64,000 nt of DNA from an uncultured Clostridia bacterium (lineage in GTDB: Bacteria > Bacillota > Clostridia > Christensenellales > UBA1242): the NCBI GenBank assembly GCA_944381215.1, contig CALWKF010000001.1:65201-129200 (forward strand), read 5' to 3'. How positions within the stretch are numbered: position 1 is the stretch's first letter; each line of letters begins with the position of its first letter. A model generated the notes under the pieces. The model was given only the letters and a program-made list of their open reading frames with translations. It was not told where the DNA came from and searched no databases. The translations under genes were made by a program, and so were the position numbers. This document shows, piece by piece, positions 4,966 to 64,000 of the stretch.

Positions 4966-5088
4966 TTACTTATGACACTTGTCATATATGCCTCTTTACG
5001 CGGGGGCGGATAATTAAAAAACAAACTCATACTTTAAATAACTTTATAAAATGATAATTACCAAGACACAAAACAAAAGGAGTAAATT

Positions 5089-5934: not shown

Positions 5935-5935
5935 A

Positions 5936-6280
5936 ATGAAAATATTTAACAGAGCAAAGGGTATACAAGGCGAGCAACTAGCCCTAAAATACCTGAGTAG
6001 ACATAAATTCAAGATTTTAGAGAAAAACTATACATGCCCAGTTGGCGAGGCGGACATAATCGCCATAAATAACGGAATGCTGGTCCTAATCGAGGTAAAG
6101 AGCAGGTCAACTCTCGAATTCGGTCGCCCCGCCGAAGCGGTAGACAGCGTAAAGCAACGAAAGTTACAAAACATCGCCCTTTTTTACCAAAAGAAAAAAC
6201 ACTTGTTTAATATGCCCGTGCGCTTTGATGTCGTGGAAGTACTGGGTACGGAAATCAACCACATAGAAAACGCCTTTTAA
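5936..6280 (+). CDS. yraN: YraN family (UPF0102) endonuclease-like protein
   Basis: GEQLALKYL...GEADIIA...LVLIEVKSR motif pattern. Confidence 0.85.
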   Translation: MKIFNRAKGIQGEQLALKYLSRHKFKILEKNYTCPVGEADIIAINNGMLVLIEVKSRSTLEFGRPAEAVDSVKQRKLQNIALFYQKKKHLFNMPVRFDVVEVLGTEINHIENAF

Positions 6281-8003: not shown

Positions 8004-8335
8004 AAAGAGGATACTGGGCTGGCGCGGTGCGTAGGTGTATTCCAAATATATTTAGGGTCATCCTGAGTGTCGACCCGCGTAGCCTTTGTAACTCAGCGCA
8101 TATGGAAAGTAGCAATAGAAATATTTAGCATGACGCTGCCCGAAGGATCTCATTCCTGCCTCTTAAAACAAACGGAGCACAAGTAATCGCTTTAAGAGGC
8201 TACTGTGGCTAGCGCGAGAGCATTCATTTCTAATTATACCAATCACTTACGCGCCAGACTTCCCGCAAGCGGGAAGGCATCCTGAGCCCGCCCCGCGAAG
8301 CCTTTAGACGAAGGATCTATTCCTCTTAGATACTT
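8004..8335 (+). repeat. mosaic GC-rich intergenic repeat array 1 (same module family as 59250-60062)
   Basis: Modules: X (8014-8056, CTGGGCTGGCGCGGTGCG...ATATATTTAGG); long core (8057-8153, GTCATCCTGAG...GTAACTCAGCGCAT...GACGCTGCCCGAAGGATCTCAT); Y (8203-8277, with the cttcccg-caag-cgggaag hairpin at 8259-8276); short core (8278-8320). No ORF. Confidence 0.85.
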
Positions 8336-38145: not shown

Positions 38146-38185
38146 AAAGTTTTAGATTTGGGCAATCTAATTCTTGGAGGAAAAT

Positions 38186-41100: not shown

Positions 41101-42724
41101 GGATCTCGCTAGAAATTATGAAAACAGTAGTTACGACAGTGTAAACGGAACATTTACTTGCACTGGAATTGAAGAAAATATTTATCTAACCGTATACTTT
41201 GCGCTAGTCAACACCCAAATCACATTTACAGCAGAAGGCGTGGATGAAGAGGGCGGATGGTACCTTTACGACGGTAGTAATATGGTTGATACCCAGGGTG
41301 AAATTGCTATCAAATCATACGCAAACGATGTGCGCGTGCAACTAGCTAGCGCATATAGAGATAACGGCGAATACACACGTAAATACACATTTAGCCACTG
41401 GGAAATCAATGGTATTCCCGTATCAAGTGCGAGCGATTACACATTTAAAGTAACTGGCGAAGAAATGAATGTCAACGCCGTGTTTATGCCAGTTGAATTG
41501 CGTGTAACCGCTAATGTTGTCAGAATCAACGAAAACTCAGGCATGTATGATAACCTTAGTGAAGCTGGCGATGTAAAAGGCTTACTAGTAAACACCTACC
41601 ACTATGGCGACGTTATCACTCTTGAAGCGTCAACTCACAAGGGCTTTGTGTTCCTAGGGTGGTATGTTTGGAACGAGAACTTGGATTCGAGCCAAGCAAA
41701 TGGCAGATTCATTACCGATGAGCCAACAATTACTTTAACTATCACATCAAACACCAAGATTTACGCCACTTTCGAGCGTATTAGCAATGTCACTATACAA
41801 ATGTCTGACGACAGCGCAGGCACAACCACTGGTAGTGGTACCTACATGGTGGGCGAAAACATCACCCTGTCTGCAACCCCTAACGCAGGTTACAGGTTCG
41901 TAAGCTGGCAGGAGAACGGTAGTGTCGTAAGTAACGATGCTAACTACCGCTTAACAGTTACTAGGGACGATCGCACTCTACTTGCTGTGTTCGAGCCAAT
42001 TTTTAAGATAACTCTTATTTCTAGTAACGATGACTACGGCAAAATTATTGGCAACACTAGCGGAAACTACCGCGAGAATGTAACCCTAAGGGCTGTCAGC
42101 GAAAACAACTGCTCCTTTGTTGGTTGGGTTATTAACGATAAGATTGTCAGCACTTCTGATACATTAAGCCTAAACCTAAACGGTGATATCGAAGTGCGTG
42201 CACTGTTTAAGAAAAACTTTGACTGGAATATCTTGATTATTTTGGTAGGTTGCGTGCTGTTTGCTGGTATCTTGATTGCTGGTTCCGCAGCTTACATCAA
42301 GATGAGAGAGGCAGAACCAATGCCTGTCCGCGTACTGCTTAATAGCAAGGATGACAAAGAAGCCCTGCAGAAGCCTTCTAGGCGCAATCAATACCGCGAC
42401 ACCATTGAGCCAGTACCTACACGCAAGAATACAAAGGCAAATGTCGCTCCTATCCCTGTTAGAAAGATTACAGTCGCTCCTATTAATCACAAGGGCGAGT
42501 TGGTAGGCAGGACAAAACGCGCCGCTGAGGAGCAACCAACACTAAAGACCGAGACAACTCCTGAAAAACCTATTGAAAAAGAAACAAAGAGTGAAAAGAC
42601 AGAAAAGCCTAAAACCACCACGGCTGCAAAGTCAAAATCAACTCAAAATTCTAAATCAAAGGCAAATAAGGGCAAGAAGTCAGGTGGCAATCACAAGGGT
42701 AAAAAGTCCAAAAAGAAAAAATAA
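38186..42724 (+). CDS. giant surface protein: N-terminal TM, GLUG-motif region, ~10 InlB-B-like repeats, C-terminal TM and ~190-aa Lys-rich tail
   Basis: ATG 38186 behind GGAGG (track TTG 38174 lies in the RBS). YVGGLAGAL...NCYN motifs. Recurring GY(E/R)F(I/V)SW / GFVFLGWY repeat motifs. TM ILIILVGCVLFAGILIAGSAAYI, then ...KGKKSGGNHKGKKSKKKK. Confidence 0.85.
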   Translation: MNSNRFFKLSKWKIMQTVLLLLLGAVVAISFLVPNSISNRNYVSADEVDAVPASSLEGFVPTALGSGEYFETEVDSSVEPNATYYLISDADDLRTLAYFVNTTFTEEQTSELELQEKYSRASYRMTNHIDLSRWTQWEPIGTMANPFSGSFSGQGYSIYGLTIIDDIEEPTTDTYAGLFGNVSYLKDGDTEYKPVIQRLGLKDTIIKTNREYVGSIVAVANGVNPMIYGADAIINPTFRTKTEVENISSDETVNRAYSDAQGSLVIQDCYNVGYVEGGNYVGGLAGALYYGAVIYNCYNAPSTTNAYNTNYDVYSSNANSNIGGIVGAGDFTTMAIVYNCISTVSVSKQDATNSSTNIGYIIGSKSNLAGSTQYTYNVYYNRNFTYSGDFGTGLSLARLSSTSYLTNRGFSITGYNPGTWASNTSTIWAQQSDVNNGVPVLYNVPQLVKYDFVAQDVDGNELIASEAISEAVDTADLEAYDGALLFEQGTSFLTRGTSVMEYKYEFSKWSEYYTANSIEPAEYEDYIANSDISSVQFFTNHDATIIAVFGFKTYTLTLTADPSDKIDGENTIISIRDGISNTYNNVQNGLTVEYNDEITIQGVATTGYEISAWTTMYQDAISGTGADITLSVQAYVDAYMSASQAEIPVSLNIIAHIQPKSYDFSINEIDSSIGTITATVNGGDSLGTSDSVEFGSQIALQATVTDPNYEFISWVISFGNGTTQQIELLNYSFTVQDQGSISITANFDKKKFYVTISSVAGGSASVISATESSTSGNSFYYDETIEIQATASTGYELTGINVYKGEELIDLDSEGMVFDLESGVLTINTLNADIRVVPVFSIMSFDLTVVVTPADGATVTYNGESIVGTNEFVYNTDVPINVFVTEGYELVSITSDDGAVYSNGNFVKVLKDTTITITLQKQTFVVNVTINYDSSSAYSIDASCINGVGQYTYGDVVEISFDTPVMFRFSRWDLARNYENSSYDSVNGTFTCTGIEENIYLTVYFALVNTQITFTAEGVDEEGGWYLYDGSNMVDTQGEIAIKSYANDVRVQLASAYRDNGEYTRKYTFSHWEINGIPVSSASDYTFKVTGEEMNVNAVFMPVELRVTANVVRINENSGMYDNLSEAGDVKGLLVNTYHYGDVITLEASTHKGFVFLGWYVWNENLDSSQANGRFITDEPTITLTITSNTKIYATFERISNVTIQMSDDSAGTTTGSGTYMVGENITLSATPNAGYRFVSWQENGSVVSNDANYRLTVTRDDRTLLAVFEPIFKITLISSNDDYGKIIGNTSGNYRENVTLRAVSENNCSFVGWVINDKIVSTSDTLSLNLNGDIEVRALFKKNFDWNILIILVGCVLFAGILIAGSAAYIKMREAEPMPVRVLLNSKDDKEALQKPSRRNQYRDTIEPVPTRKNTKANVAPIPVRKITVAPINHKGELVGRTKRAAEEQPTLKTETTPEKPIEKETKSEKTEKPKTTTAAKSKSTQNSKSKANKGKKSGGNHKGKKSKKKK

Positions 42725-44685: not shown

Positions 44686-47600
44686 ATGAAAACGAAATTA
44701 TTAGGCAAGATTACTTTATTAGCATTTGTGCTAATGGTGACTCTGTCATTCGGTTCAATCAGTCCTATGTTAGCCACCGTTAGCGCAGCTACCACAATCG
44801 AGAGTGCTGGTGACACTGGATATATTATTGAATTGACAGGGTATCAATCAAGCTATGACTTGGATGATACCGAAGATTTTGGCGACGCTACGGGATACAA
44901 ACTCCCTACACCTGTTGTAAAGAGCTGGACTGGCTCTACAACTCAGGTTGAGAGTGGTGTAAACGTGGATGTTACCGTTACCAGTTCTTCTGGTAGAGAG
45001 GTCGCAGTCGCTGTAAGTGGCTCAGACCGCTTTATTCAAGTAGGCAAGTCTGACCGCTACACCGTAACTTACACCGCTACAAACGAAAGTGGCGTAGTTA
45101 CCGCTACCCGCAATGTTACAATCGACATCACTGCACAGGATGCCGAGTTTGAGTTTGACTCTAACAGTCCTCAAATTATGCCCACAGTTGTTGAGGCAGG
45201 GGACAAAATCGTATTCCCATGGCCAAAAGTAAGCTTTGGCGATGACCAATACGCAACTGAGCCAAACATCACAATCACCCTTGAAGGTCCTACAAAGGCA
45301 AGCGAGGGTGCTACCAGCGCAGTTACTTCGCGTGAGTTAGGCAACCAGGTTATTGACAATGTTAACTACAAGACTTACACTGTTACCGAAAACGACACTG
45401 GTACCTTTACCGTAACCTATACCTACGACAACAGCGGTACTGACATTGTTGAGAAGTTTACATTCAATGTTGTTACGACCGCTCCCGAGGTAAATCTCGC
45501 TTACAGCGGATGGTCAAGTTCGATTGAGAACTTGTCGCTATCAGTAGGTCAGGAGGCACCTCTTCCAACACCTACCGTTATTAACACCGCACAAAGCAAT
45601 GTAACAGTTAGCAATGTTTACACCGAAATCACTATCGTAAACCTAACAACTAACAAAACTTACCCTGTAATTACTGACTTCAAGTTTACCCCAGACGAAG
45701 ACGGCGACTACCGCATTACCTACGTTACAAAGGACTTTACTGGTGCCGTTGTTTCGTACACTACTTTGAAGAGTCACGTTAGAAAGACTGGCGACTCTAT
45801 TACCATTAAAGTAGTAGATGACTACTCTGACAAGGTAACTGTTGACGGCGAGGGTAACACCACAATCGACTCTAGTATGGCAGACATCAACGATGTTGAA
45901 AATGCTGACTACGCAATTCCGTCGAACGTTTACCTAGTTGGTGGCGAGGCTACCGTTACATTCCCAGCAATTTATGCAACAGCAGGTTGGGGGGATTATG
46001 ACAACCTTCACTTAACTCGTCAAATTTACCGCAGAAACTCTTCGCAACAAATTCTAGAGCGACAGCAGAAGCCAAACAGTTCTGAGACCTACAAGGCATA
46101 CGAAGAGGCACCTTACACCTTCACATCAGAGGGCGAGTACTCAATTCGTTACATCGCATACTATGTTGACGACGAGGGTAAAGAAATTAATGGTACTACT
46201 AGACAGTTGAGCATCAGCTTCACTGTTCACGATGTTGACGCAGAGCCTACAATCGACCTTAGTATCACTGCTCCAAATGTTACAAAGGCTACTAGAAAGG
46301 GTAGCACAATCACATTCAGTGCACCTACTGCTACCTCTGTAATTTCGGGTACTAACGAAGTTGCCGACGCAAACATCAAAATCGATGTTCGTTACAGATT
46401 TAACTACGGCACAGGCTACAGCGACTACTACACCGCTGAGTTAAACGACGACAATCTATACGAAATTAAGATTGAAATGCCAGAGGGAATGGAAGAGGCT
46501 CAATGGAACACTGTTTCATCTCTTGAAATTTCCTTCAAGGCAATCGATGACTTCTGCGACGGCGTACCTGCTACTGCCGTTAGAACGGTTAGCATCGTAG
46601 ACTTTTCTGCAGACAACACCGCTCCACAACTTACTGCTTTTGACGCAAGTGTTGACTCGAGCGAGGCAGGCATTCTAACTCTTCCTACTGTTACCTTCAC
46701 TGATGACAACTCGAGCATCAGCCTAGTTGCATACGTATTGAAGGGCAACAGTGTAATGAGAGTTATTAACGCAAACACTGGCGATACCGCAACAATTCAA
46801 GGTGCTACCTACACACCTACCGAAGAGGGTACCTACACTGTTACCTTTGTTGCAACCGACCAGAACAACAACATTAGCACAATCAGTGTTAACTACAAGG
46901 TGGACTTCCACAACGGATACTCTGTATCTATTGACAACATCAGCGCACAACAATATGGTACTGTAATCAATCTCCTTGACTACATCAATGTTACCGACCA
47001 CGGCACTGCTATCGACATGGCTGACATGACAGTTAGAGTCGTTCAAGAAGAGGTTACTCAAGAGTTCCTTAATAGTGCCGAGAGTATGCCTAACAACACA
47101 TTGATTATCTATGTATCTGGCGACTTCCAATTCCCGATTGCTGACCGTATCGACGGCGAGATTGTTACTCTCGAGGGTGATGTAACCGTTAGAGCATGGG
47201 CAAAGGATAGCGAAGGCGTATGTGACTACACACAAAATGGTTCTTCAGCAATCACATTTACAACCTCTGACTCTACAAACCCGACCTTCACAATCGAGGA
47301 TGAGTCGCTCGACGGTAGTAACTACGAGTTTACTGACAGCACCGCTGACAACGAGATTACTCTTCCTTGGTTTGACCGCGTAATCGACAACGAGAGCGGT
47401 ATCAACCCCGACACCATGAAGATTGAAGTGTACTACCAGGACACTCCTGACGAAATCATTCACACATTTACTAGTGCAAACATCGATGCATTGAAATTCA
47501 CACCAAATAGACAGGGTAAGATTACTGCCGAGTACTCAGTATCTGACATGATTGGTAACACTTACACCCGTACGTTTACCCTAAACATCGGTGATGTTAC

Positions 47601-48069
47601 TCCTCCTGAAATCGTGCTAAATGATGGCGCAATTACTGCTGACAACTACGTTGGTGGTAAGTTGACTATCGACCTAAACAACTTCGATATTGACAACGAC
47701 GCGCTTGACCCGCTAGAAGACATTGCTATCACCATTACTCGTGATGGTACCGATGTTGAATTCTCTCGCGACAGTGAGAACCGCAACATTATTGAAATTA
47801 CTCTTGACACCGCAGGCACTTATGTAGTTACTTTCGATACTGAGGACACCGCAGGCAACCAGGCACAGACTGTTACTAGAACTTACAACATTTCTGCACA
47901 GTCTACTACTCCTACAAACACTGCAACTATTTGGGGTACAATATTGATTATTGTAGCATTAATTGTACTAGGTCTTGTAATATTCTTCTTTGTAAAGCCT
48001 TCTAAGTCAAAGGTTTCCGCTCCTAAGACTACTACAAAGAAAGATGAGGACAGCAAGAAGAACAAATAA
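44686..48069 (+). CDS. large surface protein with tandem Ig-like domains, cleavable signal peptide, C-terminal TM anchor
   Basis: Signal MKTKLLGKITLLAFVLMVTLSFG...ATVSAATT. Recurring domain starts of D-x-T-x-P type (DNTAPQLT, DSTNPTFT, GDVTPPEIV). TM ILIIVALIVLGLVIFFFV plus a K-rich tail. No LPXTG. Confidence 0.85.
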   Translation: MKTKLLGKITLLAFVLMVTLSFGSISPMLATVSAATTIESAGDTGYIIELTGYQSSYDLDDTEDFGDATGYKLPTPVVKSWTGSTTQVESGVNVDVTVTSSSGREVAVAVSGSDRFIQVGKSDRYTVTYTATNESGVVTATRNVTIDITAQDAEFEFDSNSPQIMPTVVEAGDKIVFPWPKVSFGDDQYATEPNITITLEGPTKASEGATSAVTSRELGNQVIDNVNYKTYTVTENDTGTFTVTYTYDNSGTDIVEKFTFNVVTTAPEVNLAYSGWSSSIENLSLSVGQEAPLPTPTVINTAQSNVTVSNVYTEITIVNLTTNKTYPVITDFKFTPDEDGDYRITYVTKDFTGAVVSYTTLKSHVRKTGDSITIKVVDDYSDKVTVDGEGNTTIDSSMADINDVENADYAIPSNVYLVGGEATVTFPAIYATAGWGDYDNLHLTRQIYRRNSSQQILERQQKPNSSETYKAYEEAPYTFTSEGEYSIRYIAYYVDDEGKEINGTTRQLSISFTVHDVDAEPTIDLSITAPNVTKATRKGSTITFSAPTATSVISGTNEVADANIKIDVRYRFNYGTGYSDYYTAELNDDNLYEIKIEMPEGMEEAQWNTVSSLEISFKAIDDFCDGVPATAVRTVSIVDFSADNTAPQLTAFDASVDSSEAGILTLPTVTFTDDNSSISLVAYVLKGNSVMRVINANTGDTATIQGATYTPTEEGTYTVTFVATDQNNNISTISVNYKVDFHNGYSVSIDNISAQQYGTVINLLDYINVTDHGTAIDMADMTVRVVQEEVTQEFLNSAESMPNNTLIIYVSGDFQFPIADRIDGEIVTLEGDVTVRAWAKDSEGVCDYTQNGSSAITFTTSDSTNPTFTIEDESLDGSNYEFTDSTADNEITLPWFDRVIDNESGINPDTMKIEVYYQDTPDEIIHTFTSANIDALKFTPNRQGKITAEYSVSDMIGNTYTRTFTLNIGDVTPPEIVLNDGAITADNYVGGKLTIDLNNFDIDNDALDPLEDIAITITRDGTDVEFSRDSENRNIIEITLDTAGTYVVTFDTEDTAGNQAQTVTRTYNISAQSTTPTNTATIWGTILIIVALIVLGLVIFFFVKPSKSKVSAPKTTTKKDEDSKKNK

Positions 48070-53678: not shown

Positions 53679-56600
53679 TTATTTACGACGCTTAATTTGA
53701 ACGGTCTTTTCTTTTTTCTCAGTTTCTTTCTTGATTTTTTGATTTATGCGGTCATATTCATCTTCAAGGATTCGAATGTCCAATTCAATTTGCTCAATTT
53801 TGTCTTGCTGAATTTTGATTGATTTAGCAATCTGCTTCTCATCGGGCAACTCTAACTCCACATTAGGATTGTCTTGCGCAATCTCTTTTGCAGTGTTGTA
53901 TGCTTGTACTTTCTTTTCGTACTCGGCTTGTTCTTGTGCCAAGAAGTCTTGCGACTGCTTCAACTCCTCGTGGAGTAGGTCAATCTTGTGCTTAATTGCA
54001 GTCTTGCGCTCACGGCGGTCAACATCTTTAAGCAAGGTCTGCAAGCGGTCGTAGTCGGTGCCCACAACAGTTGCATTCTTTCTCGGGCGGTTTTGGTAGA
54101 ATTTCTTGATGTAGAAGCCAACCACAGCCACAATTACAGCCACCGCGATAATTACGGTAGGGATAGCAAACCAGTCAAATGAGCCATAAACATTTGGAGT
54201 CTCTTCCTCTTCCTCAACGGTGTTAGTAGCCATTAGGATGTTGTCGGGCAAGTTCTCGGTATCAATGGTCGCTGTTTCACTGTTGTAGTCGTCTTCGGAT
54301 AGGTTCGTTACAGTAAGGCCTGCAAAGAACACATAACCAGTCGTAGGCATAGCCTGCGTGCCGAGCCCAAGGCGAATCACACCATCAACGTCGCTCGTGG
54401 TGTTGATGTACATAACGTACTCGGTCCATTCGTTCGTACGGTCATTGAACATATCCTCCAAGGTCGTACGCTCGTTTTTCGCGGTATTAATTCCAGTAAA
54501 ACTGCTGTCAATTCCGTCAATACTAATCGATGCACCATTTACATAAGGGTTACCATTCTCATCGTATTCGCCTTCAACATTTTTAGCAATGTTTATAGTG
54601 CGCACCCAAACACTCAGTTTGTAGTATTGGCCCGAGGTAAAGGTGTAGGTGAGGTTGCTAGTGTAGTAGTAGTACATCGGGTTTGTCGTGTCAGTTGTAG
54701 CGATAAATAGCACCATGTTGTTGTCATCACTAGGAGCGGTAGGGTTGCCCTCAAGGTAGCGGTCGTAGTAGCGCACGTCAATTAGACCACTGTTTACGTA
54801 AATAGGGTCGTAGCCCTCGCCAATGCTCCCAGTCCAGTAGGTAGGCTGGCCATTTGTAACGGCAGTCAGCGAGTTTGTAGTCAGGTCAACCACATAGGTG
54901 TTGTCATCAGCAGTAATGCCGTTAAAGGTTTCCTCGGTGATGCTCGTGTCAATGATACAGTTGTCGAAGAACGCCACACCACTGGTAGGAGTATTCTCAT
55001 CTCCTAGGGTCAAACTTACGGTCAGATCTTGCGCGTCAAAGGTGTTTTTGATGTAAATTTCGTAGCTTTCCCAAGCATTTGTGCTAGGTAGTCTAATTTG
55101 CTGAATGATAACATTGTCAGCATTTCTAACGGTAATCGCTGCGTAGCCATTTGAACTAATACTGCGCGTGTACGCCTCAACGCTAATCAAGGCATATCCG
55201 TCAGCGGTCACGTTCACACTACCACTGGTGTATCCCTGGTAGTAGCGCGCATCGTTACGAACCATCAGCACATTGTCCGAGTAGTCTCCGCTAGGCTTAG
55301 CAGGGCGGGCAATGTTTAGATTGCTCTCGCTCCAAAGTTCGGGTAAAAGGTTTACGACACCGCTGTTGATTACATTGTCGCTAACAGCAGTCCAGTCCTT
55401 AGGTGCCAGCGGATAGGAAACTCCGTCTTCGCCAATTTCCACGAAGTTAAATGTGCCGTTTACAAAGGAAAGGGTCGTGAAGTTGTTTAAGGTTAAAGTT
55501 GCAGTGCTAGAAGCACTCGAAGTAGCATCCTGTTGAGCAGTGGTTACTTTTTCGCTCCTAATTCCAGCAATTGCAACATAGCCTGTTGCATTTGCACTGC
55601 TGGTCCCTAGACCAAGGGTAAGGTTTACGACGCCGTCAAATAACGGGTTACCCTCGATATAAAAGGTGTAGAGTGCCCAGTTGTTGTTAATGGCTAATGC
55701 AGAGGTCGATAGGGTGCTAATGCTCTGGCTCTGCAAGGTCCCCTCAGGGTTGTCCTCGTCAGGCATTACGGTCTGCTCAGGCAGGTATCCCGATACCATA
55801 AAGTTAGCCGACCCTGTTGTCAGGTTCCCCTTAGCCCAGAATGTGATGCGGTAGAGGCCGTGTTGCTTGATTTCAATGTCGCTGGACTTAATAGCGTCAT
55901 AACCGTCGTTTACAGCGATTACAACACCACTGTTATCACCGCGTTGGTTCGTACCGAAAATAATACTCTCATCGTTAACGGTCAAAGGCTTGTTAAAATC
56001 ACTGTTGGTAGCATTTGAGCCGTTTACGTAAATTACAGTACCATTCGAGGATGTCTCATTAGTCCAAGTCCCAGATAGAGGCTTTGAGAAGTCCCCGTTT
56101 TCCACAAAGCCGTCGCCACTAGTTAGGTAAGTGGGGCGAAGGTCAACAAAACTCGAGTATGTGCTAGTGTTTAAAACCTCGTTAAATTTGTCCCCAGAGT
56201 AACGCTTTACCATTACATTGTCAAAGAGTACAAACCCAGCACTGCCACCGATTGTGGACTTTTCGCCAAGGAATAGCTCGAGCCCAACACTCGTGTCGCC
56301 CTCGGAACCGGTCGCAATGTAGAAGGTTACTGTCTGCCAGCCACCTTGAGTGTTAATTCCTGTGATTTGCGATTCATAGGTTTCCTCAACATCCTCGCCA
56401 GTTAAGTACACACTCGCCGAAGCGGTCGGGTCGGTGTACACGCGCACACTGATTTCGTAGAAGCTGTTGCTGGTTAGGGTAACGTCAGTGTCGTTTGCAT
56501 AACCATAGTTGTAACGTACATCACTGCTACCATTGTTACCGCTGTTAATCATTAGGACATATTGGTCAGAGCTTGAAGCCGAACTAGCTGGCGGGCGAGT

Positions 56601-56957
56601 AAATTCTGTCAGGCCATAGTCGCCGTGGTGCGAGTTCCAAGTTGAAAGAGTTAGGTCAATTATACCAGCCTTTTCGGGTTCGATTAGTGTGTTCTCATCC
56701 CAAACTGACCACGATTGAGGAGGCCTCGGGAATGAGGAAGTACTAGACGCATTCGCAAAAGTGTTGTTTGAAAAGTTTGTTACACTGTCATCAATGTTGA
56801 TTGCGTCAGTAGTCAGGTCCGTAACGTCGCTAGCAGAAACAATGCTACGGCTCCCCGCGATTCCAGTAAGAAAGATAGCGTTCTGCATCAACAGAAAACT
56901 AATCACCAAAATCATTGTAAGAATAAATGTGTTAATTGAGAAAGATTTTTTAGTCAT
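53679..56957 (-). CDS. large envelope protein: N-terminal signal anchor, four CBM-like jelly-roll modules, C-terminal TM, cytoplasmic coiled-coil tail
   Basis: Four ~190-aa modules with a recurring pattern (NGDF/NGTF...W...GVVNL/GIIDL...Y.ISV.VYT...W..Y.IYI...GL.L.LG...G...FDN..V). TM AIPTVIIAVAVIVAVVGFYI, then heptad-like K/E/Q-rich ~130 aa. Confidence 0.8.
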   Translation of the reverse strand: MTKKSFSINTFILTMILVISFLLMQNAIFLTGIAGSRSIVSASDVTDLTTDAINIDDSVTNFSNNTFANASSTSSFPRPPQSWSVWDENTLIEPEKAGIIDLTLSTWNSHHGDYGLTEFTRPPASSASSSDQYVLMINSGNNGSSDVRYNYGYANDTDVTLTSNSFYEISVRVYTDPTASASVYLTGEDVEETYESQITGINTQGGWQTVTFYIATGSEGDTSVGLELFLGEKSTIGGSAGFVLFDNVMVKRYSGDKFNEVLNTSTYSSFVDLRPTYLTSGDGFVENGDFSKPLSGTWTNETSSNGTVIYVNGSNATNSDFNKPLTVNDESIIFGTNQRGDNSGVVIAVNDGYDAIKSSDIEIKQHGLYRITFWAKGNLTTGSANFMVSGYLPEQTVMPDEDNPEGTLQSQSISTLSTSALAINNNWALYTFYIEGNPLFDGVVNLTLGLGTSSANATGYVAIAGIRSEKVTTAQQDATSSASSTATLTLNNFTTLSFVNGTFNFVEIGEDGVSYPLAPKDWTAVSDNVINSGVVNLLPELWSESNLNIARPAKPSGDYSDNVLMVRNDARYYQGYTSGSVNVTADGYALISVEAYTRSISSNGYAAITVRNADNVIIQQIRLPSTNAWESYEIYIKNTFDAQDLTVSLTLGDENTPTSGVAFFDNCIIDTSITEETFNGITADDNTYVVDLTTNSLTAVTNGQPTYWTGSIGEGYDPIYVNSGLIDVRYYDRYLEGNPTAPSDDNNMVLFIATTDTTNPMYYYYTSNLTYTFTSGQYYKLSVWVRTINIAKNVEGEYDENGNPYVNGASISIDGIDSSFTGINTAKNERTTLEDMFNDRTNEWTEYVMYINTTSDVDGVIRLGLGTQAMPTTGYVFFAGLTVTNLSEDDYNSETATIDTENLPDNILMATNTVEEEEETPNVYGSFDWFAIPTVIIAVAVIVAVVGFYIKKFYQNRPRKNATVVGTDYDRLQTLLKDVDRRERKTAIKHKIDLLHEELKQSQDFLAQEQAEYEKKVQAYNTAKEIAQDNPNVELELPDEKQIAKSIKIQQDKIEQIELDIRILEDEYDRINQKIKKETEKKEKTVQIKRRK

Positions 56958-57108
56958 AATGTTTACCTTTTAGTTAGAATAATCACGCATATTTCTAGTG
57001 CATAATATACATCCTATTATATATCATTACTAAAATAAAAGCAAGTTTTTACACGCACTTTAAATAGATAAATTTTGCACTTTAACAATAAAATGCGGGG
57101 AAAAGAGG

Positions 57109-57465
57109 ATGACTGTATCAAAAATTAGCGGTTTAGTAGTCGCGGGAATGGTAATTGGAGTCATAAATGGCTTTTTTGGCGGTGGGGGCGGAATGATATG
57201 CGTGCCAGCACTCCTGCTACTCGGCCTAAAAAACAAAGAGGCCCAAGCAACCGCAATTTTGATTATGCTACCCATAAGTATTGCCAGCGCGATTGTTTAT
57301 TATTCAAACGGCTTTGTTGATTGGTGGACCGTGCTGTTTGTCGCAATTGGCTCAATATTCGGCGGAATAGTCGGGGCGTACTTGCTTAAAAAATTATCAA
57401 ACAATGTTTTACAATATATTTTTGCTGTCGTGGTGCTGTCGGCTGGTATTAGAATGCTGTTTTAG
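57109..57465 (+). CDS. TSUP (TauE/SafE) family transporter, half-size subunit 1
   Basis: GFFGGGGGMICVPALLLLG glycine motif. 118 aa, about 4 TM segments. Confidence 0.8.
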   Translation: MTVSKISGLVVAGMVIGVINGFFGGGGGMICVPALLLLGLKNKEAQATAILIMLPISIASAIVYYSNGFVDWWTVLFVAIGSIFGGIVGAYLLKKLSNNVLQYIFAVVVLSAGIRMLF

Positions 57466-57473
57466 GAGGGGTT

Positions 57474-57911
57474 ATGGCGTGGTATTTTTTGGTGCTTGCG
57501 GGCCTGTTTGGCGGGCTCGTCGGCGGAATGGGAATGGGCGGAGGCACATTATTAATTCCAATTCTTACAATGTTTTTAGGGGTCGAGCAACATCTAGCGC
57601 AAGCAATAAACCTGCTCGTTTTCATCCCCACAGGCCTAATAGCCGTTCTCATCCACGCGAAAAATAAATTGCTCGATTTCAAGGTCTTCGGCATTATCAT
57701 CATCCCAGCAATAGCCACAGCCGTGGGTTCTGCATTGCTAGTGGGCGAGATAAAGAGCGACACTTTGCGCATAATTTTCGGCGCATTTTTAATTATTATT
57801 GGCCTGTTTGAATTGTACCAGGCAATAAACACCACAATCAAGAATAAAAGGAAAATAAACACCCCGATTATAAAACACAATCTCTACTCGCGCTTTTCTC
57901 GAGATTTTTAA
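57474..57911 (+). CDS. TSUP (TauE/SafE) family transporter, half-size subunit 2
   Basis: GGMGMGGGTLLIPILTMFLG motif. 145 aa. Starts 8 nt after subunit 1. Confidence 0.8.
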   Translation: MAWYFLVLAGLFGGLVGGMGMGGGTLLIPILTMFLGVEQHLAQAINLLVFIPTGLIAVLIHAKNKLLDFKVFGIIIIPAIATAVGSALLVGEIKSDTLRIIFGAFLIIIGLFELYQAINTTIKNKRKINTPIIKHNLYSRFSRDF

Positions 57912-57973
57912 CGTGGACAAGCAACTTTATTTACTTTATACGCATATACCTATTTATTAAAGGGGGTGCGTAC

Positions 57974-58681
57974 TTGATAATAGAAACTTTTGTCACTTTT
58001 ATGAATAAGATAATGTTGTTCTCATCGTATGTTGACCACGCATCTAGTTTCCCAAAGACCTTGACTCCCGAAGAGGAAAAATACTATATAGACCGAATGC
58101 GCGCAGGAGATACCGAGGCCAAAAACATCCTAGTCTCGCATAATTTAAGGCTGGTGGCTCATATAGTTAAAAAGTACAGCAACAGCTCAAAAGACGCCGA
58201 CGACCTAATCTCAGTCGGCGCAATCGGGCTAATTAAGGCGATAAATAGCTTTTCCCCCGAAAAGGGCGCACAACTGTCGACCTACGCCGCGCGCTGTATC
58301 GAAAACGAAATTCTTATGCTGTTTAGAGCAAACAAAAAACATCAGGGAAATATCTCCTTGGAGGAAACAATAGGCACGGAAAAGGACGGAAACGAAATAA
58401 TGCTCGAGGACGTAATCTGCGACATCGATACCGATATCGTGGAAATGGTCGAGAGCAACATTTTGACAGAAAAACTAATAAATATTATAAAAGGTTCGTT
58501 ATCAAATCGGGAGTACAAGATTCTCTGTATGCGCTACGGCATCGGGGGCGGGGTGGCCTATACCCAGCGCGAAGTTGCGAAAAAACTAGGCATATCTCGT
58601 AGCTACATCAGTAGGCTCGAAAAGAAGGCCATCGAAACGGTCCGCGCCGAGGTGCACGCCAAGAAAATTTACGCAGATTAA
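57974..58681 (+). CDS. sigK: sporulation sigma factor, pro-sigma-K type (uninterrupted)
   Basis: Pro-sequence plus SYVDHASSFPKTLTPEEEKYY...GD.EAKN.LV.HNLRLVAHIVKKY...YAARCIENEILM closely parallels B. subtilis SigK from memory. AAGGGGG RBS, TTG start. Confidence 0.85.
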   Translation: MIIETFVTFMNKIMLFSSYVDHASSFPKTLTPEEEKYYIDRMRAGDTEAKNILVSHNLRLVAHIVKKYSNSSKDADDLISVGAIGLIKAINSFSPEKGAQLSTYAARCIENEILMLFRANKKHQGNISLEETIGTEKDGNEIMLEDVICDIDTDIVEMVESNILTEKLINIIKGSLSNREYKILCMRYGIGGGVAYTQREVAKKLGISRSYISRLEKKAIETVRAEVHAKKIYAD

Positions 58682-58780
58682 AAAAATTAGGCATTTCTAG
58701 GAGTTATATTAGCAGGCTTGAGAATAAGGCCATAGAAATGATTTGCGCCGAAGTGCACGCAAAAAATCTACGCAGATTAA
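58682..58780 (+). repeat. diverged tandem ghost copy of the last ~33 codons of sigK (region 4.2)
   Basis: Aligns to 58580-58681 base for base, with roughly one difference in five and a 1-nt deletion near the end. Starts directly after the sigK stop codon. Confidence 0.85.
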
Positions 58781-58869
58781 AAAAATTGACAAAAATTGTG
58801 CTATAATATTTTACATTTTCTCGCAATTGTTGTACAATACTAATATTAATAATAGAAAGGAGATAGATT

Positions 58870-59208
58870 ATGGCTGAAACAAAAAAGAGTTCTAGCTCAA
58901 AGTCTTCGAGCAGTAGCAGTAGTAGTAGCAGTAAGAAGTCATCAATGTGGGGCTTAAACAAGATTTCGTTCTACACAATCGCCGCAGTTGCAATTTTATA
59001 CTTGATTAGTTTAATCTTGTCTGCTTGTGGCGTTTCATCTGTTGCTGTAATGGCTATGCAGAATATCGGTACTGCTATTATGGTAGGTATCACCGCATAT
59101 CTAGCATGGAAGTATGTTCGCCCTAAACAAACCGTTTGGAAAGTACTATACTTCGTACTGTTGCTCGTAATTCTAGCTGGTATTATCGTGCCTCTAGTAA
59201 TGGGCTAA
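58870..59208 (+). CDS. small membrane protein with poly-Ser N-terminus
   Basis: AAGGAG RBS. KKSSSSKSSSSSSSSSSKKSS is encoded by an AGY/TCN run. Three hydrophobic segments. Strong terminator. Confidence 0.7.
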   Translation: MAETKKSSSSKSSSSSSSSSSKKSSMWGLNKISFYTIAAVAILYLISLILSACGVSSVAVMAMQNIGTAIMVGITAYLAWKYVRPKQTVWKVLYFVLLLVILAGIIVPLVMG

Positions 59209-59216
59209 AAACAAAA

Positions 59217-59243
59217 AACTTGGGATACCCCAAGTTTTTTTGT
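59217..59243 (+). terminator. rho-independent terminator
   Basis: aacttggg / cccaagtt stem with a 4-nt loop, then T7. Confidence 0.8.
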
Positions 59244-59249
59244 TTTTAA

Positions 59250-60062
59250 AGGCCATTATACTAACGCAGTGCGAGGACGTACTTCCAAATATATTTAAGG
59301 TCATCCTGAGCCCGCCCCGCGAAGCCTGAGACGAAGGATCTCATTCCTGCCACTTTTAAAAGGACACTGGGCTGGCGCGAGAGTATTCGTTTCTAATTAT
59401 ACCAATCATTCGCGCGCCAGACTTCCCGTAAACGGGAAGGCATCCTGAGCCTCGACCCGCGAAGCCCTTTGTAACTCAGCGCATAGGAAAAGTAACAATA
59501 GAAATATTTAGCACGACGCTGCCCGAAGGATCTCATCTCATCCGCTTAAAAAGGACACTGGGCTGGCATGGTGCGAAGTCGCACACAATATATTTAAAGT
59601 CATTCTGAGCCCGCCCCTCGTAGCCTTCGACGAAGAATCTCATTCCATCCGCTTTAAAAGGCCACAGGGCTGGCGCGAGAGTATTCGTTTCTAATTATAC
59701 CAATCATTCACGCGCCAGACTTCCCGCAAGCGGGAAGGCATCCTGAGCCCGCCCCGCGAAGCCTTCGTAACTCAGCGCATAAGAAAAGCAACAATAGAAA
59801 CATCTAGCATGACGCTGCCCGAAGGATCTCATCTCCTTTGGTCATCCTGAGCCCGCCCCGCGAAGCCTGAGACGAAGGATCTCATTCCTGCCTCTTAAAA
59901 CAATGCCCAACAAACCATAAAGATGTAGTAGAACAAAGCGGCTGAGATTCTTCGTCTCAGGCTCTGTAAGCAGGGCTCAGAATGACAGTGTTTTTTACCA
60001 ATAAAATCACTTAGTCATCCTGAGTGCCGACCCTCGAAGCTCTCAGACGAAGGATCTCATCC
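59250..60062 (+). repeat. mosaic GC-rich intergenic repeat array 2 (about 0.8 kb)
   Basis: Core copies: short 59300-59344, long 59441-59536, short 59599-59643, long 59739-59832, short 59841-59885, inverted short 59944-59986, short 60014-60060. Y modules: 59367-59440 and 59665-59738. X modules: 59261-59299 and 59556-59598. No ORF. Confidence 0.9.
59944..59986 (-). repeat. inverted copy of the short core module
   Basis: gagattcttcgtctcaggc...ggctcagaatgac is the reverse complement of the GTCATTCTGAGCC...GCCTGAGACGAAGAATCTC consensus. Confidence 0.85.
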
Positions 60063-60156
60063 ACTTATTTACTGCTTTCTAAAGAGATTTTTTACGCAAT
60101 TTAAATAATTTACCAGTATTTTACAGCCTATAATTTTTAAAAACTTTTTAAAAAAT

Positions 60157-60185
60157 TTGCTAAAAACCTCGAAAATTGTTATAAT
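60157..60185 (+). promoter_or_regulatory. sigma-A promoter, homologue of 8383-8411
   Basis: TTGCTA (60157-60162), 17-nt spacer, TGtTATAAT (60177-60185), within a block homologous to 8338-8420. Confidence 0.55.
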
Positions 60186-60362
60186 AATATTATTAGAATA
60201 TGTAAAGGAGGGAATCAACAACAAACAACTTCTAGGACGATGTAGCCTTTAATTGCTAGTTAATCATAGTATAACCTTGTTTAATTTAAGTCGATTATTA
60301 AATTATATCTTGTTCCTAGTCTAAAATTAAATTATATTAAGTTATGTTGTTGAAAAATAAAT

Positions 60363-60422
60363 ATGAAGTACTCTTTTAATACAAAATTGCATAAAAACCT
60401 ACGGGGGGGGGGCGCTTTCTAG
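60363..60422 (+). other. relic leader ORF (MKYSFNTKLHKNLRGGGAF*) carrying G10, now a uORF in the 5' leader of paralogue B
   Basis: About 75 bp near-identical to 8459-8530. No good RBS. With 9 G it would run only to a TAA 14 codons later, not into the gene. Confidence 0.6.
60403..60412 (+). repeat. poly(G)10 homopolymer, second copy
   Basis: Counted directly: acGGGGGGGGGGcgc, in the same context as 8493-8502. Confidence 0.9.
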
Positions 60423-60558
60423 CCTAAAAATTTCTTGTATTAGAAAAACTCACTTTAATCTATAAATTTATTTTTAATCAAAAAATTTAATTAATTTTAC
60501 TAAAAATAAAAGTAATTTATAGAAAATGTCGTAATTTTATAACAAAAGGTGAGTTTTT

Positions 60559-62511
60559 ATGATAAAATTATCCAAAACTAAAACGAGTTTAATAGTAACC
60601 CTTGTCTGCATTTTCTGTATAGCCACACTATTAACCGCTTTTTTATTTACCCCGAAAGATATGGTAAACGCATTTACCAGTGTCGATAGTTCGAACGCAG
60701 TCGTTGTGCCTCAATTATGGGGTGAGTCCAGCCAGTCTTTTAACTATGATGCAATGTCAACACTACTAAGTTACATATCCAGTGATGGCACAATTAATGG
60801 GGTAAATACTACCCAGCAGACCGCCGCAGACATTCGCAACTATACCTACGGAGGAAAAGAAAGTGGAAAATCAGTCGTAGTAACTCTAGGTGATTACCAA
60901 TGGCAAGTAGTATACCTAACTAGGACAGGTAACACCACCGGCGACCGTATAGCCACATTACTAATGGTTAATAACGATGGTACAGCTAGTATAACTCCTG
61001 GTGGCTTCGATAGTGGTAGTAACTGGACAGGTGCTTATCCCTCTAATATGTATGGTGCTAGTTATATGCGTGCAGTTATCTTAAATAATGGCGGAATATA
61101 TGCTAATATTACTGCTGATAGTAACAATTCATATTCAACAGCATCAGCTACTCAATCTGCATCGCACAAGTACGCATTATATACTGTAGCCTCACAAGGA
61201 CTAACTCATTACTTAGTACAACCTAAAAATGTATGGTACCAAACCCAAGCACAGTTAACAGGCAGTGCTAATCCCGATGGATACACTCTAAACAACGAGT
61301 CATTATCTACCAGTATAAGTACAGGCTGGTACAGGAACTACGCTTCTGGTTACTCATACCAAACAAAGAACTATTACACCCAATGGGGGAATGACCATTT
61401 GTGGCTACCCAGCCTTTCAGAGACAGGTACAAGTAATTCTGAGTTGGGTATTTGGGAGTTGTCCACAACAGAACGTTCGGCTTCTAATGAGTGGTGGTCG
61501 CGGTCTGGTTGCTATAATGATTCGTACAGTGCTTACTTCCTTTATCCTTCCGGCTCCATCTCTCGTATCGGCATGGTGCACACTAGCTACGGCGTGCGGC
61601 CTTCGCTTCACTTAAATCTTGACTCTGCATTGAATAATTTAACAAATGATATAATAGTAGAGTCAAACGATTCTACTCAAGGTACAGTTTCAGGCGGTGG
61701 AGTGTATGACTTTGAGTATACGGGCACCACCACAATCACTGCACTTGCAAATTATGGCTATGTATTCGACTACTGGCAAGACAGTAGCGGGAACAAAATT
61801 TACCAAAACCCATATACTTTTCCAGTAACTAAAAGCGAAACATATACTGCATATTTCCGTGAACCTATAATTACAATTACATCCTCAAATGGTGGTGCCG
61901 AAATTACTCGTACAGACACCGATCCCGGCAACGTGTCAATCACTTATGGCCTAACATTTTCTGCAAATAATTATATATCGGGCATAATAATCAATAGCGG
62001 AGTTGTCCAAGATATCGGGAGCCTGAGTGGTGATTTAATAGTTGATGACACTTGCACCGCCATAAGTTACCGCACCAACACAACGGGCTCGCAACTCATA
62101 CTTGAAATTTTTCAAGTTACCAACGATATCACCATAAACCTAATATTTGTCGACATTGCCCAAAGTTACACCCCCGCCAGTGGTGGCACTAGTATTACGG
62201 GTGTCGCATTGCAAGTGAGCGGAGGCAATGGCGCGACCTTTGAGGCGGTAGGAGAGGCTCGAATCACAGGCTACTCCCAAGCCGAAAACATCACCTACGT
62301 GCACGTGAGCGCAGTCCCTTCGAGTGGCTACTATTTCGTAGGCTGGCAGACTAGCGACGACACCGACCTAAGCGATTACGGAAGCAGTGCCGACATCCCA
62401 TACAACCTAATCGAGGGAAAAATACTCACCGCTGTCTTCGCCCCCAAAACTTCTCAAAATGCCGACTCCACGCTAGACAACGCAGGGGACCAGTTTGCAC
62501 CCACTAGTTAA
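60559..62511 (+). CDS. large secreted/surface protein, paralogue B (DUF6273-like head plus B-repeat-like domains), intact with its own signal anchor
   Basis: MIKLSKTKTSLIVTLVCIFCIATLLTAFLF signal anchor. LWLPSLSE...WWSRSG...GVRPSLHLNL. GYVFDYWQDSSGN and GYYFVGWQTSDD repeat motifs. Confidence 0.85.
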   Translation: MIKLSKTKTSLIVTLVCIFCIATLLTAFLFTPKDMVNAFTSVDSSNAVVVPQLWGESSQSFNYDAMSTLLSYISSDGTINGVNTTQQTAADIRNYTYGGKESGKSVVVTLGDYQWQVVYLTRTGNTTGDRIATLLMVNNDGTASITPGGFDSGSNWTGAYPSNMYGASYMRAVILNNGGIYANITADSNNSYSTASATQSASHKYALYTVASQGLTHYLVQPKNVWYQTQAQLTGSANPDGYTLNNESLSTSISTGWYRNYASGYSYQTKNYYTQWGNDHLWLPSLSETGTSNSELGIWELSTTERSASNEWWSRSGCYNDSYSAYFLYPSGSISRIGMVHTSYGVRPSLHLNLDSALNNLTNDIIVESNDSTQGTVSGGGVYDFEYTGTTTITALANYGYVFDYWQDSSGNKIYQNPYTFPVTKSETYTAYFREPIITITSSNGGAEITRTDTDPGNVSITYGLTFSANNYISGIIINSGVVQDIGSLSGDLIVDDTCTAISYRTNTTGSQLILEIFQVTNDITINLIFVDIAQSYTPASGGTSITGVALQVSGGNGATFEAVGEARITGYSQAENITYVHVSAVPSSGYYFVGWQTSDDTDLSDYGSSADIPYNLIEGKILTAVFAPKTSQNADSTLDNAGDQFAPTS

Positions 62512-62683
62512 GTACTATGCATTAAAAATGTAAATTTCTCGATTTTTAGCACAAAAGTATTCGCAAAATTTATTGCATAATACTTTGCATAATATTAAAA
62601 CATCTTGATTTTTCAATAAAATTTATTATACAAAGTTTCTATCAGTTTATATAAAATTATTATAGAAATTCTTTTTAATTTTA

Positions 62684-62719
62684 AAATTCTCATATCTTTA
62701 AAATATGAGAATTTTTTTA
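62684..62719. terminator. strong bidirectional terminator
   Basis: aaattctcatat / atatgagaattt 12-bp perfect stem with a 7-nt loop. A run before, T run after. Confidence 0.8.
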
Positions 62720-62748
62720 TAAAGGAAAAAAGGTTAGAGTGTGGATGT

Positions 62749-62976
62749 TTAGAAAAGCGTTTGCGTAATTGTGCCAGTGTCCGAAATTATTCGATTTCTG
62801 CACCACCAGTTTGAATTGTTGTTAATGTTATCATTAAGGGTCGTTACTCCAGCGAGTGCGATTAGGGCGATTAGCAAAATTATTAGAATATTGGAGTTCG
62901 TCGCAAGGTCGGTATTGGTCGACCCCGCCCACACAGAAATCAACAGCACGATGACTAAGGCTTGCGAAATGGTCAT
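62749..62976 (-). CDS. hypothetical small membrane protein
   Basis: GGGAG 6 nt before the internal ATG (comp. 62974-62976). Two hydrophobic segments and Asn-rich loops. Confidence 0.45.
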   Translation of the reverse strand: MTISQALVIVLLISVWAGSTNTDLATNSNILIILLIALIALAGVTTLNDNINNNSNWWCRNRIISDTGTITQTLF

Positions 62977-63037
62977 AGTCTGCTCCCAAAACTTTTTAAG
63001 TGGTATATGCAAAAGCAAAAAAATTTGTGAGTAACGA

Positions 63038-63066
63038 TTGAAAAAACCAACAAATTGTAGTATAAT
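63038..63066 (+). promoter_or_regulatory. sigma-A promoter for uvrC
   Basis: TTGAAA (63038-63043), 17-nt spacer, TATAAT (63061-63066). Confidence 0.5.
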
Positions 63067-63072
63067 AAAATT

Positions 63073-64000
63073 ATGGATTTAAAAACAAAGGTTAGTGAAC
63101 TCCCGCAAAACAGCGGAGTATATATAATGAAAAACGCCGAGGGTGTCGTTATCTATGTAGGGAAGGCGAAAAATCTAAAAAATCGCGTTTCGCAGTACTT
63201 CCAGCATAGTAAAAACCACACGATAAAAGTGCGAAAAATGGTGGAAAATATCGCCGATTTTTACTATATTGTAACGCCCAATGAGGCGGAGGCTTTAGCA
63301 CTAGAAAATAATTTAATTAAACGCTACCAACCTTTTTACAACATATTGCTAAAAGACGGGAAGTCATACCCATACATTCGTATTGACTTAAAAAAGGACT
63401 TTCCAAACCTCGAAATCGTGCGCAAAATCAAGCGTGACGGCGCAAAATATTTCGGCCCGTACTTTGCTGGCGTCAGCCCAACAGTCTTAATCAAAATGAT
63501 AAATAACGCGTACCCCTTGCGCATGTGCCGTGGTAGACTCCCAAAGCGCACCCGCCCTTGCATAAACTACGATTTAGGGCTGTGTAGCGCGCCTTGTTGC
63601 GGGAAAATTACAAAACAGGAGTACCGCGTTTTATTAAACAAGGCCATGGACTTCCTCAACGGAAAATTCAGCGAGGTCCAGGAGATTTTGGTCGAGAAAA
63701 TGACCCGCCTTGCCGAAAACGAGCAGTTTGAACTAGCCCTAACTATTCGCGACGGCCTAAATATGCTCGATAGACTAAAACAGCATACGCTAACCTTTAT
63801 GCCGAATCTCGACAATATCGATGCCTTTGCCTGGGCGAGCAACGGCTCGGTCGCTAGTGTCGCGGTGCTTGTCATCCGTGGTGGGCGAAGCGTCGGGGTC
63901 GATTGCTTCCACTTAATTGATGCTGAACTCAATGTCGAGGACAGCCTAACTCAATTTATTACCCAGTACTACTCGACCACCGCAATTCCACCTGAACAGG
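63073..64000 (+). CDS. uvrC: excinuclease ABC subunit C, N-terminal part (continues beyond the window)
   Basis: Not in the ORF track (no stop in window). MDLKTKVSELPQNSGVYIMKNAEGVVIYVGKAKNLKNRVSQYF is the GIY-YIG N-terminus, and the frame stays open to 64000. Confidence 0.93.
   Translation, partial: MDLKTKVSELPQNSGVYIMKNAEGVVIYVGKAKNLKNRVSQYFQHSKNHTIKVRKMVENIADFYYIVTPNEAEALALENNLIKRYQPFYNILLKDGKSYPYIRIDLKKDFPNLEIVRKIKRDGAKYFGPYFAGVSPTVLIKMINNAYPLRMCRGRLPKRTRPCINYDLGLCSAPCCGKITKQEYRVLLNKAMDFLNGKFSEVQEILVEKMTRLAENEQFELALTIRDGLNMLDRLKQHTLTFMPNLDNIDAFAWASNGSVASVAVLVIRGGRSVGVDCFHLIDAELNVEDSLTQFITQYYSTTAIPPEQ

Follow-up and report, generated by a model that had tools for sequence, protein, structure and literature searches.

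The window analysed here, a 64-kb stretch of DNA from an uncultured gut Clostridia bacterium, is a housekeeping region that carries ffh, rimM, trmD, leuS, a gene for a UvrD-type helicase, ligA, gatAB, priA, rsgA, rpe and uvrBA. Near one end lies sigK, a single continuous ORF of 235 aa that matches the SigK model NF004471 (NCBIfam) end to end (residues 2–230; 295.5 bits against a cutoff of 252) and is not split into moieties. Its stop codon is followed by a second, diverged copy of the sigK 3′ end. We refer to the live end of the gene as copy 1 and to the second copy as the ghost. The features of the locus, in window coordinates, are listed below.

57974–58681, + strand: sigK coding sequence, intact; 235 aa, TTG start, TAA stop (ORF list and family profile)
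58579–58587, + strand: left border microhomology, G-AAAAAA-CT, in the A-K-K-L codons of sigK (read directly)
58580–58681, + strand: copy 1, the live last 33 codons and stop of sigK, KKLGISRSYISRLEKKAIETVRAEVHAKKIYAD*; second half of the region 4.2 helix-turn-helix
58680–58688, + strand: duplication junction, (G/A)-AAAAAA-TT, formed by the sigK stop codon and the A-run that opens the ghost; 101 nt past the left border
58681–58780, + strand: ghost, a tandem repeat of copy 1 that is out of frame and non-coding; 100 nt, with one A in common with the sigK stop
58760–58767, + strand: A-run in the ghost with a 2-nt deletion relative to copy 1 (alignment; the offset drops from 101 to 99 nt across the run)
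58779–58787, + strand: right border, A/G-AAAAAA-TT, formed by the ghost's own stop and the ancestral post-stop A-run; repeat family D6
58781–58869, + strand: ancestral intergenic region upstream of the 112-aa gene; holds TGcTATAAT (58799–58807) and TTTACA-17-TACAAT (58810–58838)
58870–59208, + strand: gene for a 112-aa serine-rich membrane protein, a conserved, syntenic neighbour of sigK
59213–59240: terminator-like hairpin after the 112-aa gene

No Pfam or NCBIfam family matched the 112-aa downstream protein.

A second sigK end behind the stop codon

The ghost was found by tblastn with the sigK-end peptide (E = 7.6e-11), and its mean column identity to copy 1 was 81% in a two-sequence alignment with flanks included. 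Both results bear out a preliminary description of this DNA, which had reported a diverged tandem copy of the sigK end right after the stop codon. The copies are directly adjacent and head-to-tail, with 0 nt between them (58681 is the last base of copy 1, and the ghost starts at 58681/58682). We place the start of the ghost at 58681, where its K-K-L codons borrow one A from the sigK stop. A second stop codon in the sigK frame, TAG (58688–58690), follows two codons after the TAA. Equivalent positions in the two copies are offset by 101 nt at the start of the repeat (TAGG at 58587 and 58688) and by 99 nt at its end (TACGCAG at 58670 and 58769). Therefore, the lesion inside the ghost is a 2-nt gap in the A-run, aligned as GCCAAGAAAATT versus GC--AAAAAATC, and not a 1-nt deletion. 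The extent given earlier (58682 to 58780, with a 1-nt deletion) thus holds for its end and is revised here for its start and for the size of the gap. The same ghost was present in 13/13 independent metagenome assemblies of this species, and it is therefore not an assembly artefact.

Compared codon by codon, the copies differ by 12 synonymous differences and four replacements (K15N, T20M, V21I and R22C), exactly reproducing the count first reported. Third codon positions hold 12 of the 18 differences between copy 1 and the ghost (binomial P = 0.004), and the silent states specific to the ghost read AGG AGT TAT ATT AGC ... CTT. The A/T-ending codons of the ghost, against G/C-ending codons in sigK, had been noticed before, and an AT-rich source was one of the two causes offered; the pattern is real, but this cause is not upheld by the analysis of descent and decay presented below.

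Relatives with a single copy and a conserved control region

The best GTDB representative was only 62–63% identical to the window in SigK. Metagenome assemblies hold graded relatives at 74–96% SigK identity, and their sigK orthologues lie in the same gene order as in the window (UvrA, a minus-strand protein of 1,075–1,093 aa, TauE, TauE, sigK). The gene next after sigK encodes a small membrane protein of 109–113 aa in L085–L088, L099/L100 and L102, and it is a NUDIX gene in L103–L105. SigK identity to the window and the distance from the sigK stop to the next gene were as follows.

Window species: 100%; 189 nt
L099/L100: 96%; 90 nt
L085–L088: 89%; 90 nt
L102: 86%; 78 nt

In the sister lineage L099/L100, which has the same gene order, this distance is exactly 99 nt shorter than in the window. 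The ghost is absent from L099/L100, L085–L088, L102 and L103–L105, all of which are single-copy, and alignment of the window with relatives opens a clean gap of ~99–100 nt exactly at the position of the ghost. No tandem second sigK end was found in ~90 loci fetched from other lineages; the survey covered 80 GTDB loci and the metagenome loci. Because the ghost occurs in all sampled assemblies of the species and is absent from L099, the duplication took place after the split from L099 and before the species diversified.

Other double matches in the survey lay away from the sigK end, some of them on the opposite strand, and we read them as putative separate sigma-factor genes.

Beyond the gap, relatives conserve the series AAAAATT(A/G)ACA...TG(T/C)TATAA...TTTACA-17-TACAAT...GGAG...ATG. 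The best match in a promoter scan of the window was the sigma-70-like TTTACA-17-TACAAT (58810–58838), with 10 of 12 positions matching. The TGcTATAAT motif starts 19 nt downstream of the ghost, and relatives that lack the ghost have TGTTATAAA. Both promoter-like motifs and the ribosome-binding site are thus conserved in relatives without the ghost. The extended -10 that the ghost had been said to carry for the downstream gene therefore lies outside it, in ancestral intergenic DNA. Upstream of these motifs, duplication recreated an identical A-run context, so the downstream gene has kept its ancestral control region, now ~100 nt further from sigK. The ghost is simply ~100 nt of added spacer between sigK and an unchanged promoter, with no demonstrated function.

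Descent, formation and decay of the ghost

Six derived bases, judged against both L099 and L085, are common to the ghost and copy 1, and each alternative grouping is favoured by one site only. Among the derived states common to both copies is an L-to-I replacement (AIE, where the nearest relatives have ALE). Both copies also read AEVHAK and YAD, as opposed to QQVRAK and YSD in more distant relatives. The six shared derived bases thus trace the ghost to the sigK of this lineage itself. A foreign donor richer in AT was rejected on the same grounds, namely the lineage-specific derived residues and bases that the ghost shares with copy 1; the sole conceivable donor, if there was any, could be a very close sister strain. 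We also considered gene conversion from the ghost into copy 1, as two strains (L001 and L002) match the ghost at three sites in copy 1. This was rejected, since interleaved diagnostic sites are unconverted and the shared states are ancestral.

The single-copy relative L085 has both border repeats, as GCT-AAAAAA-CTC and TTA-AAAAAA-TTAAC. In L099 the sigK stop is TGA, and TGA-AAAAATTAACA stands at the place equivalent to the right border. Eleven of 12 strains likewise end the ghost with TGA, whereas the window has TAA. The TGA stops of L099 and of the ghost suggest an ancestor with a TGA stop, in which a microhomology of 7 of 7 bases (8 of 9) would have been located exactly 101 nt apart.

A single microhomology-mediated tandem duplication in the ancestor of the species, by replication slippage or illegitimate recombination, would produce this arrangement. 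As judged from the junction, the slip or crossover would have joined G-AAAAAA-CT, in the A-K-K-L codons, to G-AAAAAA-TT, made of the stop and the A-run, giving a 101-nt unit. A shift of 101 nt breaks the reading frame, and a stop codon precedes the copy; the ghost would therefore never have been translated. Subsequently, the live copy has changed only synonymously, partly toward G/C-ending codons along with the rise in GC3 of the lineage. The ghost has decayed under neutral drift, chiefly through C>T and G>A substitutions, and has lost 2 nt in its A-run.

We polarised the 19 consensus differences between the copies with L099 as the outgroup and checked the result against L085 and L102. Because L099 is the only close outgroup and differs by ~19% over this segment, some of the assignments may be in error. 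Seven of the 19 changes fall on the copy-1 branch, every one of them at a third position or in the stop codon, which is the pattern expected for a gene under purifying selection. The ghost branch carries the other 12, distributed 5/1/6 over the codon positions and affecting five codons synonymously and five by replacement, and its divergence is ~12%. On this branch alone the excess at third positions is gone (P = 0.18). The excess between the copies is largely due to the live copy's own silent changes (7 of the 19 differences).

C>T or G>A accounts for seven of the 12 ghost-branch changes. Under a uniform-mutation model there are fewer replacement codons on the ghost branch than expected (P = 0.014), and only a C>T-biased model removes this shortage: in a neutral simulation matched for mutation type, so few replacement codons had a P of 0.13. 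What separates the two values is that a C>T change in a C-ending codon is silent. The ghost branch therefore fits neutral, C-to-T-biased decay, a reading that rests on the observed C>T bias. GC3 of five neighbouring genes was 0.41–0.55 in the window (0.52–0.55 in four of the five), compared to 0.38–0.43 in L099 and 0.26–0.37 in L085, showing that the window lineage is raising the GC3 of its live genes. The A/T-ending bias of the ghost is thus explained by its own C>T decay together with this lineage-wide rise in live genes. As a rough estimate of rates, the copy-1 branch has ~6 changes in ~25 synonymous sites versus 12 in 100 for the ghost. Copy 1 is nominally faster, by a difference that looks too small for significance; a slight constraint on the ghost could also contribute.

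Comparison within the species (12–13 strains) points in the same direction. Copy 1 has four synonymous polymorphisms and no replacement polymorphism, whereas the ghost has three would-be replacements in the old frame (L>I, I>V and S>N) plus the TAA/TGA stop variant (Fisher P = 0.029 for the difference in polymorphism classes). Nucleotide diversity (pi) was 0.010 in the ghost and 0.010 in the intergenic DNA after it, compared to 0.019 at third codon positions of sigK and 0.0009 at its first and second positions. A diversity equal to that of intergenic DNA, with polymorphisms of the replacement type, means that the ghost is without coding constraint.

We are highly confident that the ghost is the product of one microhomology-mediated tandem duplication and is decaying neutrally; what small uncertainty remains lies with a very close sister strain as donor or with a weak function as a spacer, neither of which is called for by the evidence. 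Of the two origins put forward in the preliminary description, slippage duplication at the A-run followed by AT-biased decay is the one supported, by the tandem copies, the border repeats, the single-copy relatives and the C>T/G>A-rich changes over the codon positions. Known microhomology tandem duplications that leave a partial-gene pseudocopy are alike in their head-to-tail copies, border repeat, single-copy sisters and neutral decay. Nothing essential differs here; what is particular is that this duplication lies on the sigK 3′ end and is old (~12% divergence). The feature is a real but ordinary tandem duplication of a known kind, fixed in one species. Its biological weight is small: sigK, its promoter context and the downstream gene have all stayed intact, and close relatives do without these 100 bases.

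The locus does provide a caution on method. A synonymous excess between a gene and an adjacent pseudocopy is no proof that the pseudocopy was once functional, because silent changes also accrue in the live copy and most C>T decay at C-ending codons leaves the amino acid unchanged. The signal vanishes once the changes are polarised with a close outgroup. The ghost can also serve as a neutral marker of this uncultured Clostridia lineage, both small and datable, and it allows an internal comparison of neutral and synonymous rates in a genome with rising GC3.

Recombination, function and mobile elements

The raw count of 12 synonymous versus four replacement codons would also fit if a sister-lineage sigK end had been imported by homology-facilitated illegitimate recombination, in which the A-run microhomology would have set one end of the incoming DNA, so that one copy was formerly functional elsewhere. 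The ghost branch's shortage of replacements under a uniform-mutation model (P = 0.014) favours the same scenario, as does the synonymous divergence of the 112-aa gene to L099, which is 0.25 compared to 0.40–0.46 for upstream genes. However, the 112-aa gene is also slower when compared to L085, indicating a constraint specific to this gene, and in the intergenic stretch that follows the ghost, identity to L099 (75%) is at the level of the surrounding region. Nor does the ghost resemble L099 more than copy 1 does: it has 21 differences and copy 1 has 19, of which 14 and 16, respectively, are at third positions (manual counts), and the two copies share the six derived bases described above. An exact 27-nt string from the ghost was unmatched in the JGI metagenome and viral (IMG/VR) collections, and import needs two events where one suffices. 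We consider import quite unlikely. A recombination breakpoint at the ghost was likewise sought in the flanking divergence and rejected, as there is no discontinuity beyond the generally slow-evolving downstream gene. More broadly, we think it very unlikely that the ghost is a displaced native or an imported sigK end, left by recombination with foreign or sister DNA (through an element that brought a replacement end, or through import by illegitimate recombination) and not by a slip in place. If true, it would be the first trace of targeting of the sigK 3′ end outside the classical mid-gene skin elements.

Bacterial genomes are usually biased toward deletion, yet the ghost is fixed in 13/13 sampled strains and has survived to ~12% divergence. 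Such persistence, together with its nominally slower change than that of copy 1 synonymous sites, could mean that it is kept for a function, either as a spacer or insulator against sigK read-through or as a 3′ UTR element of the sigK mRNA. The diversity data count against this, as the ghost varies within the species like intergenic DNA. Folding of the ghost transcript revealed no unusual RNA structure (z = -0.70), no Rfam family matched the ghost, and no + strand terminator was present in it, the only terminator-like hairpin being on the minus strand with a weak T-tail. Furthermore, relatives without the ghost have the same promoter region. A retained function is highly improbable.

The large serine recombinase of skin-type elements is SpoIVCA or CD1231-like. 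The other origin put forward in the preliminary description was a once functional terminus from a more AT-rich source, for example the scar of an element that integrated into the sigK 3′ end with a replacement end and later lost its body. In the form considered here, an integrative element would have brought the replacement end in its attP, and deletion of its body would have left this end and the displaced native end side by side. Integrative elements commonly restore their target gene in this way, through a fragment carried by attP, with the native fragment displaced to the far end of the element (PMC7192596), and intervening elements are known to target sigK (PMC5025042). The attL/attR fragments of such replacement-end elements resemble the present locus in having an intact gene and a diverged extra 3′ end (PMC7192596). 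In those systems, however, a whole element lies between gene and fragment, accompanied by an integrase and an identical crossover core, and none of these was seen here. There are no bases between the copies, a long identical core is absent from their 5′ edge (only A6 and TAGGCAT are common to both), and Pfam scans of the 64 kb, restricted to ORFs of at least 120 aa, detected no integrase, recombinase, transposase or phage gene. Also unlike attL/attR systems, the ghost is phylogenetically this lineage's own sequence. By blastn it had no match among GenBank phages, and an exact 27-mer from it had none in IMG/VR or JGI metagenomes. Within the collections sampled, no element occupied this site in any of ~105 loci, and relatives were single-copy.

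The same gene is affected by the skin-type elements (skin of B. subtilis, skinCd of C. difficile and the sigK-integrated prophages of C. perfringens). These divide sigK into two moieties, encode a large serine recombinase and are excised in the mother cell (PMC5025042). In contrast, sigK is intact here, with neither element nor recombinase, and the repeat follows the stop codon. Known sigK elements sit in the middle of the gene and bring no replacement end with them (PMC5025042). Given the six shared derived bases, the absence of DNA between the copies and of an integrase, and the lack of viral or phage matches, we assign the element scar a nearly negligible probability.

The only candidate insertion near this position was found in a relative, L084 (P0068), in which sigK breaks after KKLG, ~10 nt from the equivalent of the ghost start. 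We rejected it as an element insertion: the break lies on a lone 4-kb scaffold and joins sigK to housekeeping genes (ThiF and U32-like). In the remaining four members of its 90% cluster, on contigs of up to 107 kb, sigK is intact and followed by NUDIX-hrcA-grpE-dnaK. The break is probably a chimeric assembly at an A-rich string.

An IMG/VR protein scan for the sigK end returned two distant matches. One of these is the viral contig L106, from an unrelated lineage, in which a sigK 3′ moiety that starts mid-gene abuts an amidase-like gene and so has the look of a prophage end. As in the known sigK elements, the interruption is not at the 3′ end of the gene and there is no replacement end. We take the amidase-like gene to be a putative prophage endolysin, and the contig looks like a classical mid-gene junction between prophage and sigK, of the skin type known from Bacillus and Clostridioides (PMC5025042); such elements exist in Clostridia.

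Gene order and repeats downstream of sigK

Synteny breaks down at window 59250-64000 when compared with L099 (sister lineage) and the more distant relatives L085, L102, and L103. In relatives, the gene 3' of sigK is a small membrane-protein gene or, in L103-L105, NUDIX, and hrcA-grpE-dnaK-dnaJ come next; in L099 these are preceded by a 306-aa minus-strand gene. In the window species, the membrane-protein gene is followed by a repeat block and a 650-aa gene in place of hrcA-grpE-dnaK-dnaJ.

58870-59208: 112-aa membrane protein gene, with a long N-terminal serine run
60559-62511: 650-aa DUF6273/Flg_new_2 surface-type protein, beyond the repeat block 3' of the membrane-protein gene

The 112-aa protein falls in no Pfam or NCBIfam family. 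Among the relatives examined, the closest ones (L085-L088, L099/L100, and L102) also have this gene 3' of sigK, and its synonymous divergence from L099 is unusually low (0.25, compared with 0.40-0.46 for neighbouring genes).

A GC-rich dispersed repeat family is present at window 59280-60060, with one further copy at 8276-8302. Its core, GTCATCCTGAGCCCGCCCCGCGAAGCC, occurs five times in the window (0 expected by chance), and copies are nested within ~300-nt units in both direct and inverted orientations. The family looks REP- or MITE-like and has no match in Rfam. Spacing from the sigK stop codon to the 650-aa gene is ~500 nt less in L001, a locus of the same species, than in the window. It should also be noted that a large number of metagenome contigs of the window species stop ~1.2-1.5 kb 3' of sigK.

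Broken, partial, or SigK-like sequences in other genomes

Three further loci carry broken or partial sigK or a second SigK-like sequence. In L084 (2060-2240), a single 4-kb scaffold, the sigK of an 83%-identical relative breaks off after the KKLG residues near the start of the duplicated end (AAAAAATTAGGG followed by TCAACC...), and the break joins convergent ThiF-family and U32-like genes. Since sigK is intact on other contigs of that species, the sigK-ThiF join is probably a chimeric assembly; a strain-specific rearrangement is a possible alternative.

On the viral contig L106 (IMGVR_UViG_3300018427_000840, 4500-6144), an amidase-like gene, probably an endolysin, is followed by a 105-aa ORF whose C-terminal two-thirds correspond to a sigK 3' moiety (regions 3-4). 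The arrangement resembles one end of a skin-type prophage sitting mid-gene in a different Clostridia lineage.

In L034, from a Ruminiclostridium MAG, the region 4.2 peptide of sigK has a near-identical SigK-like counterpart, KMLGISRSYVSRIEKKAIKKL.

4577-4648 (+): region 4.2 peptide
7342-7268 (-): second, SigK-like region 4.2 peptide, encoded on the strand opposite to sigK and 2.6 kb 3' of it

The second peptide could come from a sigma-factor paralogue or from a piece of sigK that has been rearranged.

Codon usage and other genes of the window

For the neighbouring genes tested (window 53679-59208), GC3 is 0.41-0.55, compared to 0.38-0.43 in the sister lineage (L099) and 0.26-0.37 in the 89% relatives (L085). 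The higher GC3 of these genes suggests a recent genome-wide move to G/C-ending codons in the window lineage.

A TauE/SafE-family transporter is encoded by two adjacent half-size genes.

57109-57465: first half-size gene, 118 aa
57474-57911: second half-size gene, 145 aa

This split pair is kept in all syntenic relatives and is therefore not a frameshift pseudogene.

Several very large ORFs (739-1,543 aa) are interspersed with housekeeping genes.

8553-10772: very large ORF
32566-37197: very large ORF
38174-42724: very large ORF
44686-48069: very large ORF, no Pfam family match
53679-56957: very large ORF, no Pfam family match

Three of the very large ORFs have Flg_new_2 or DUF6273 matches.
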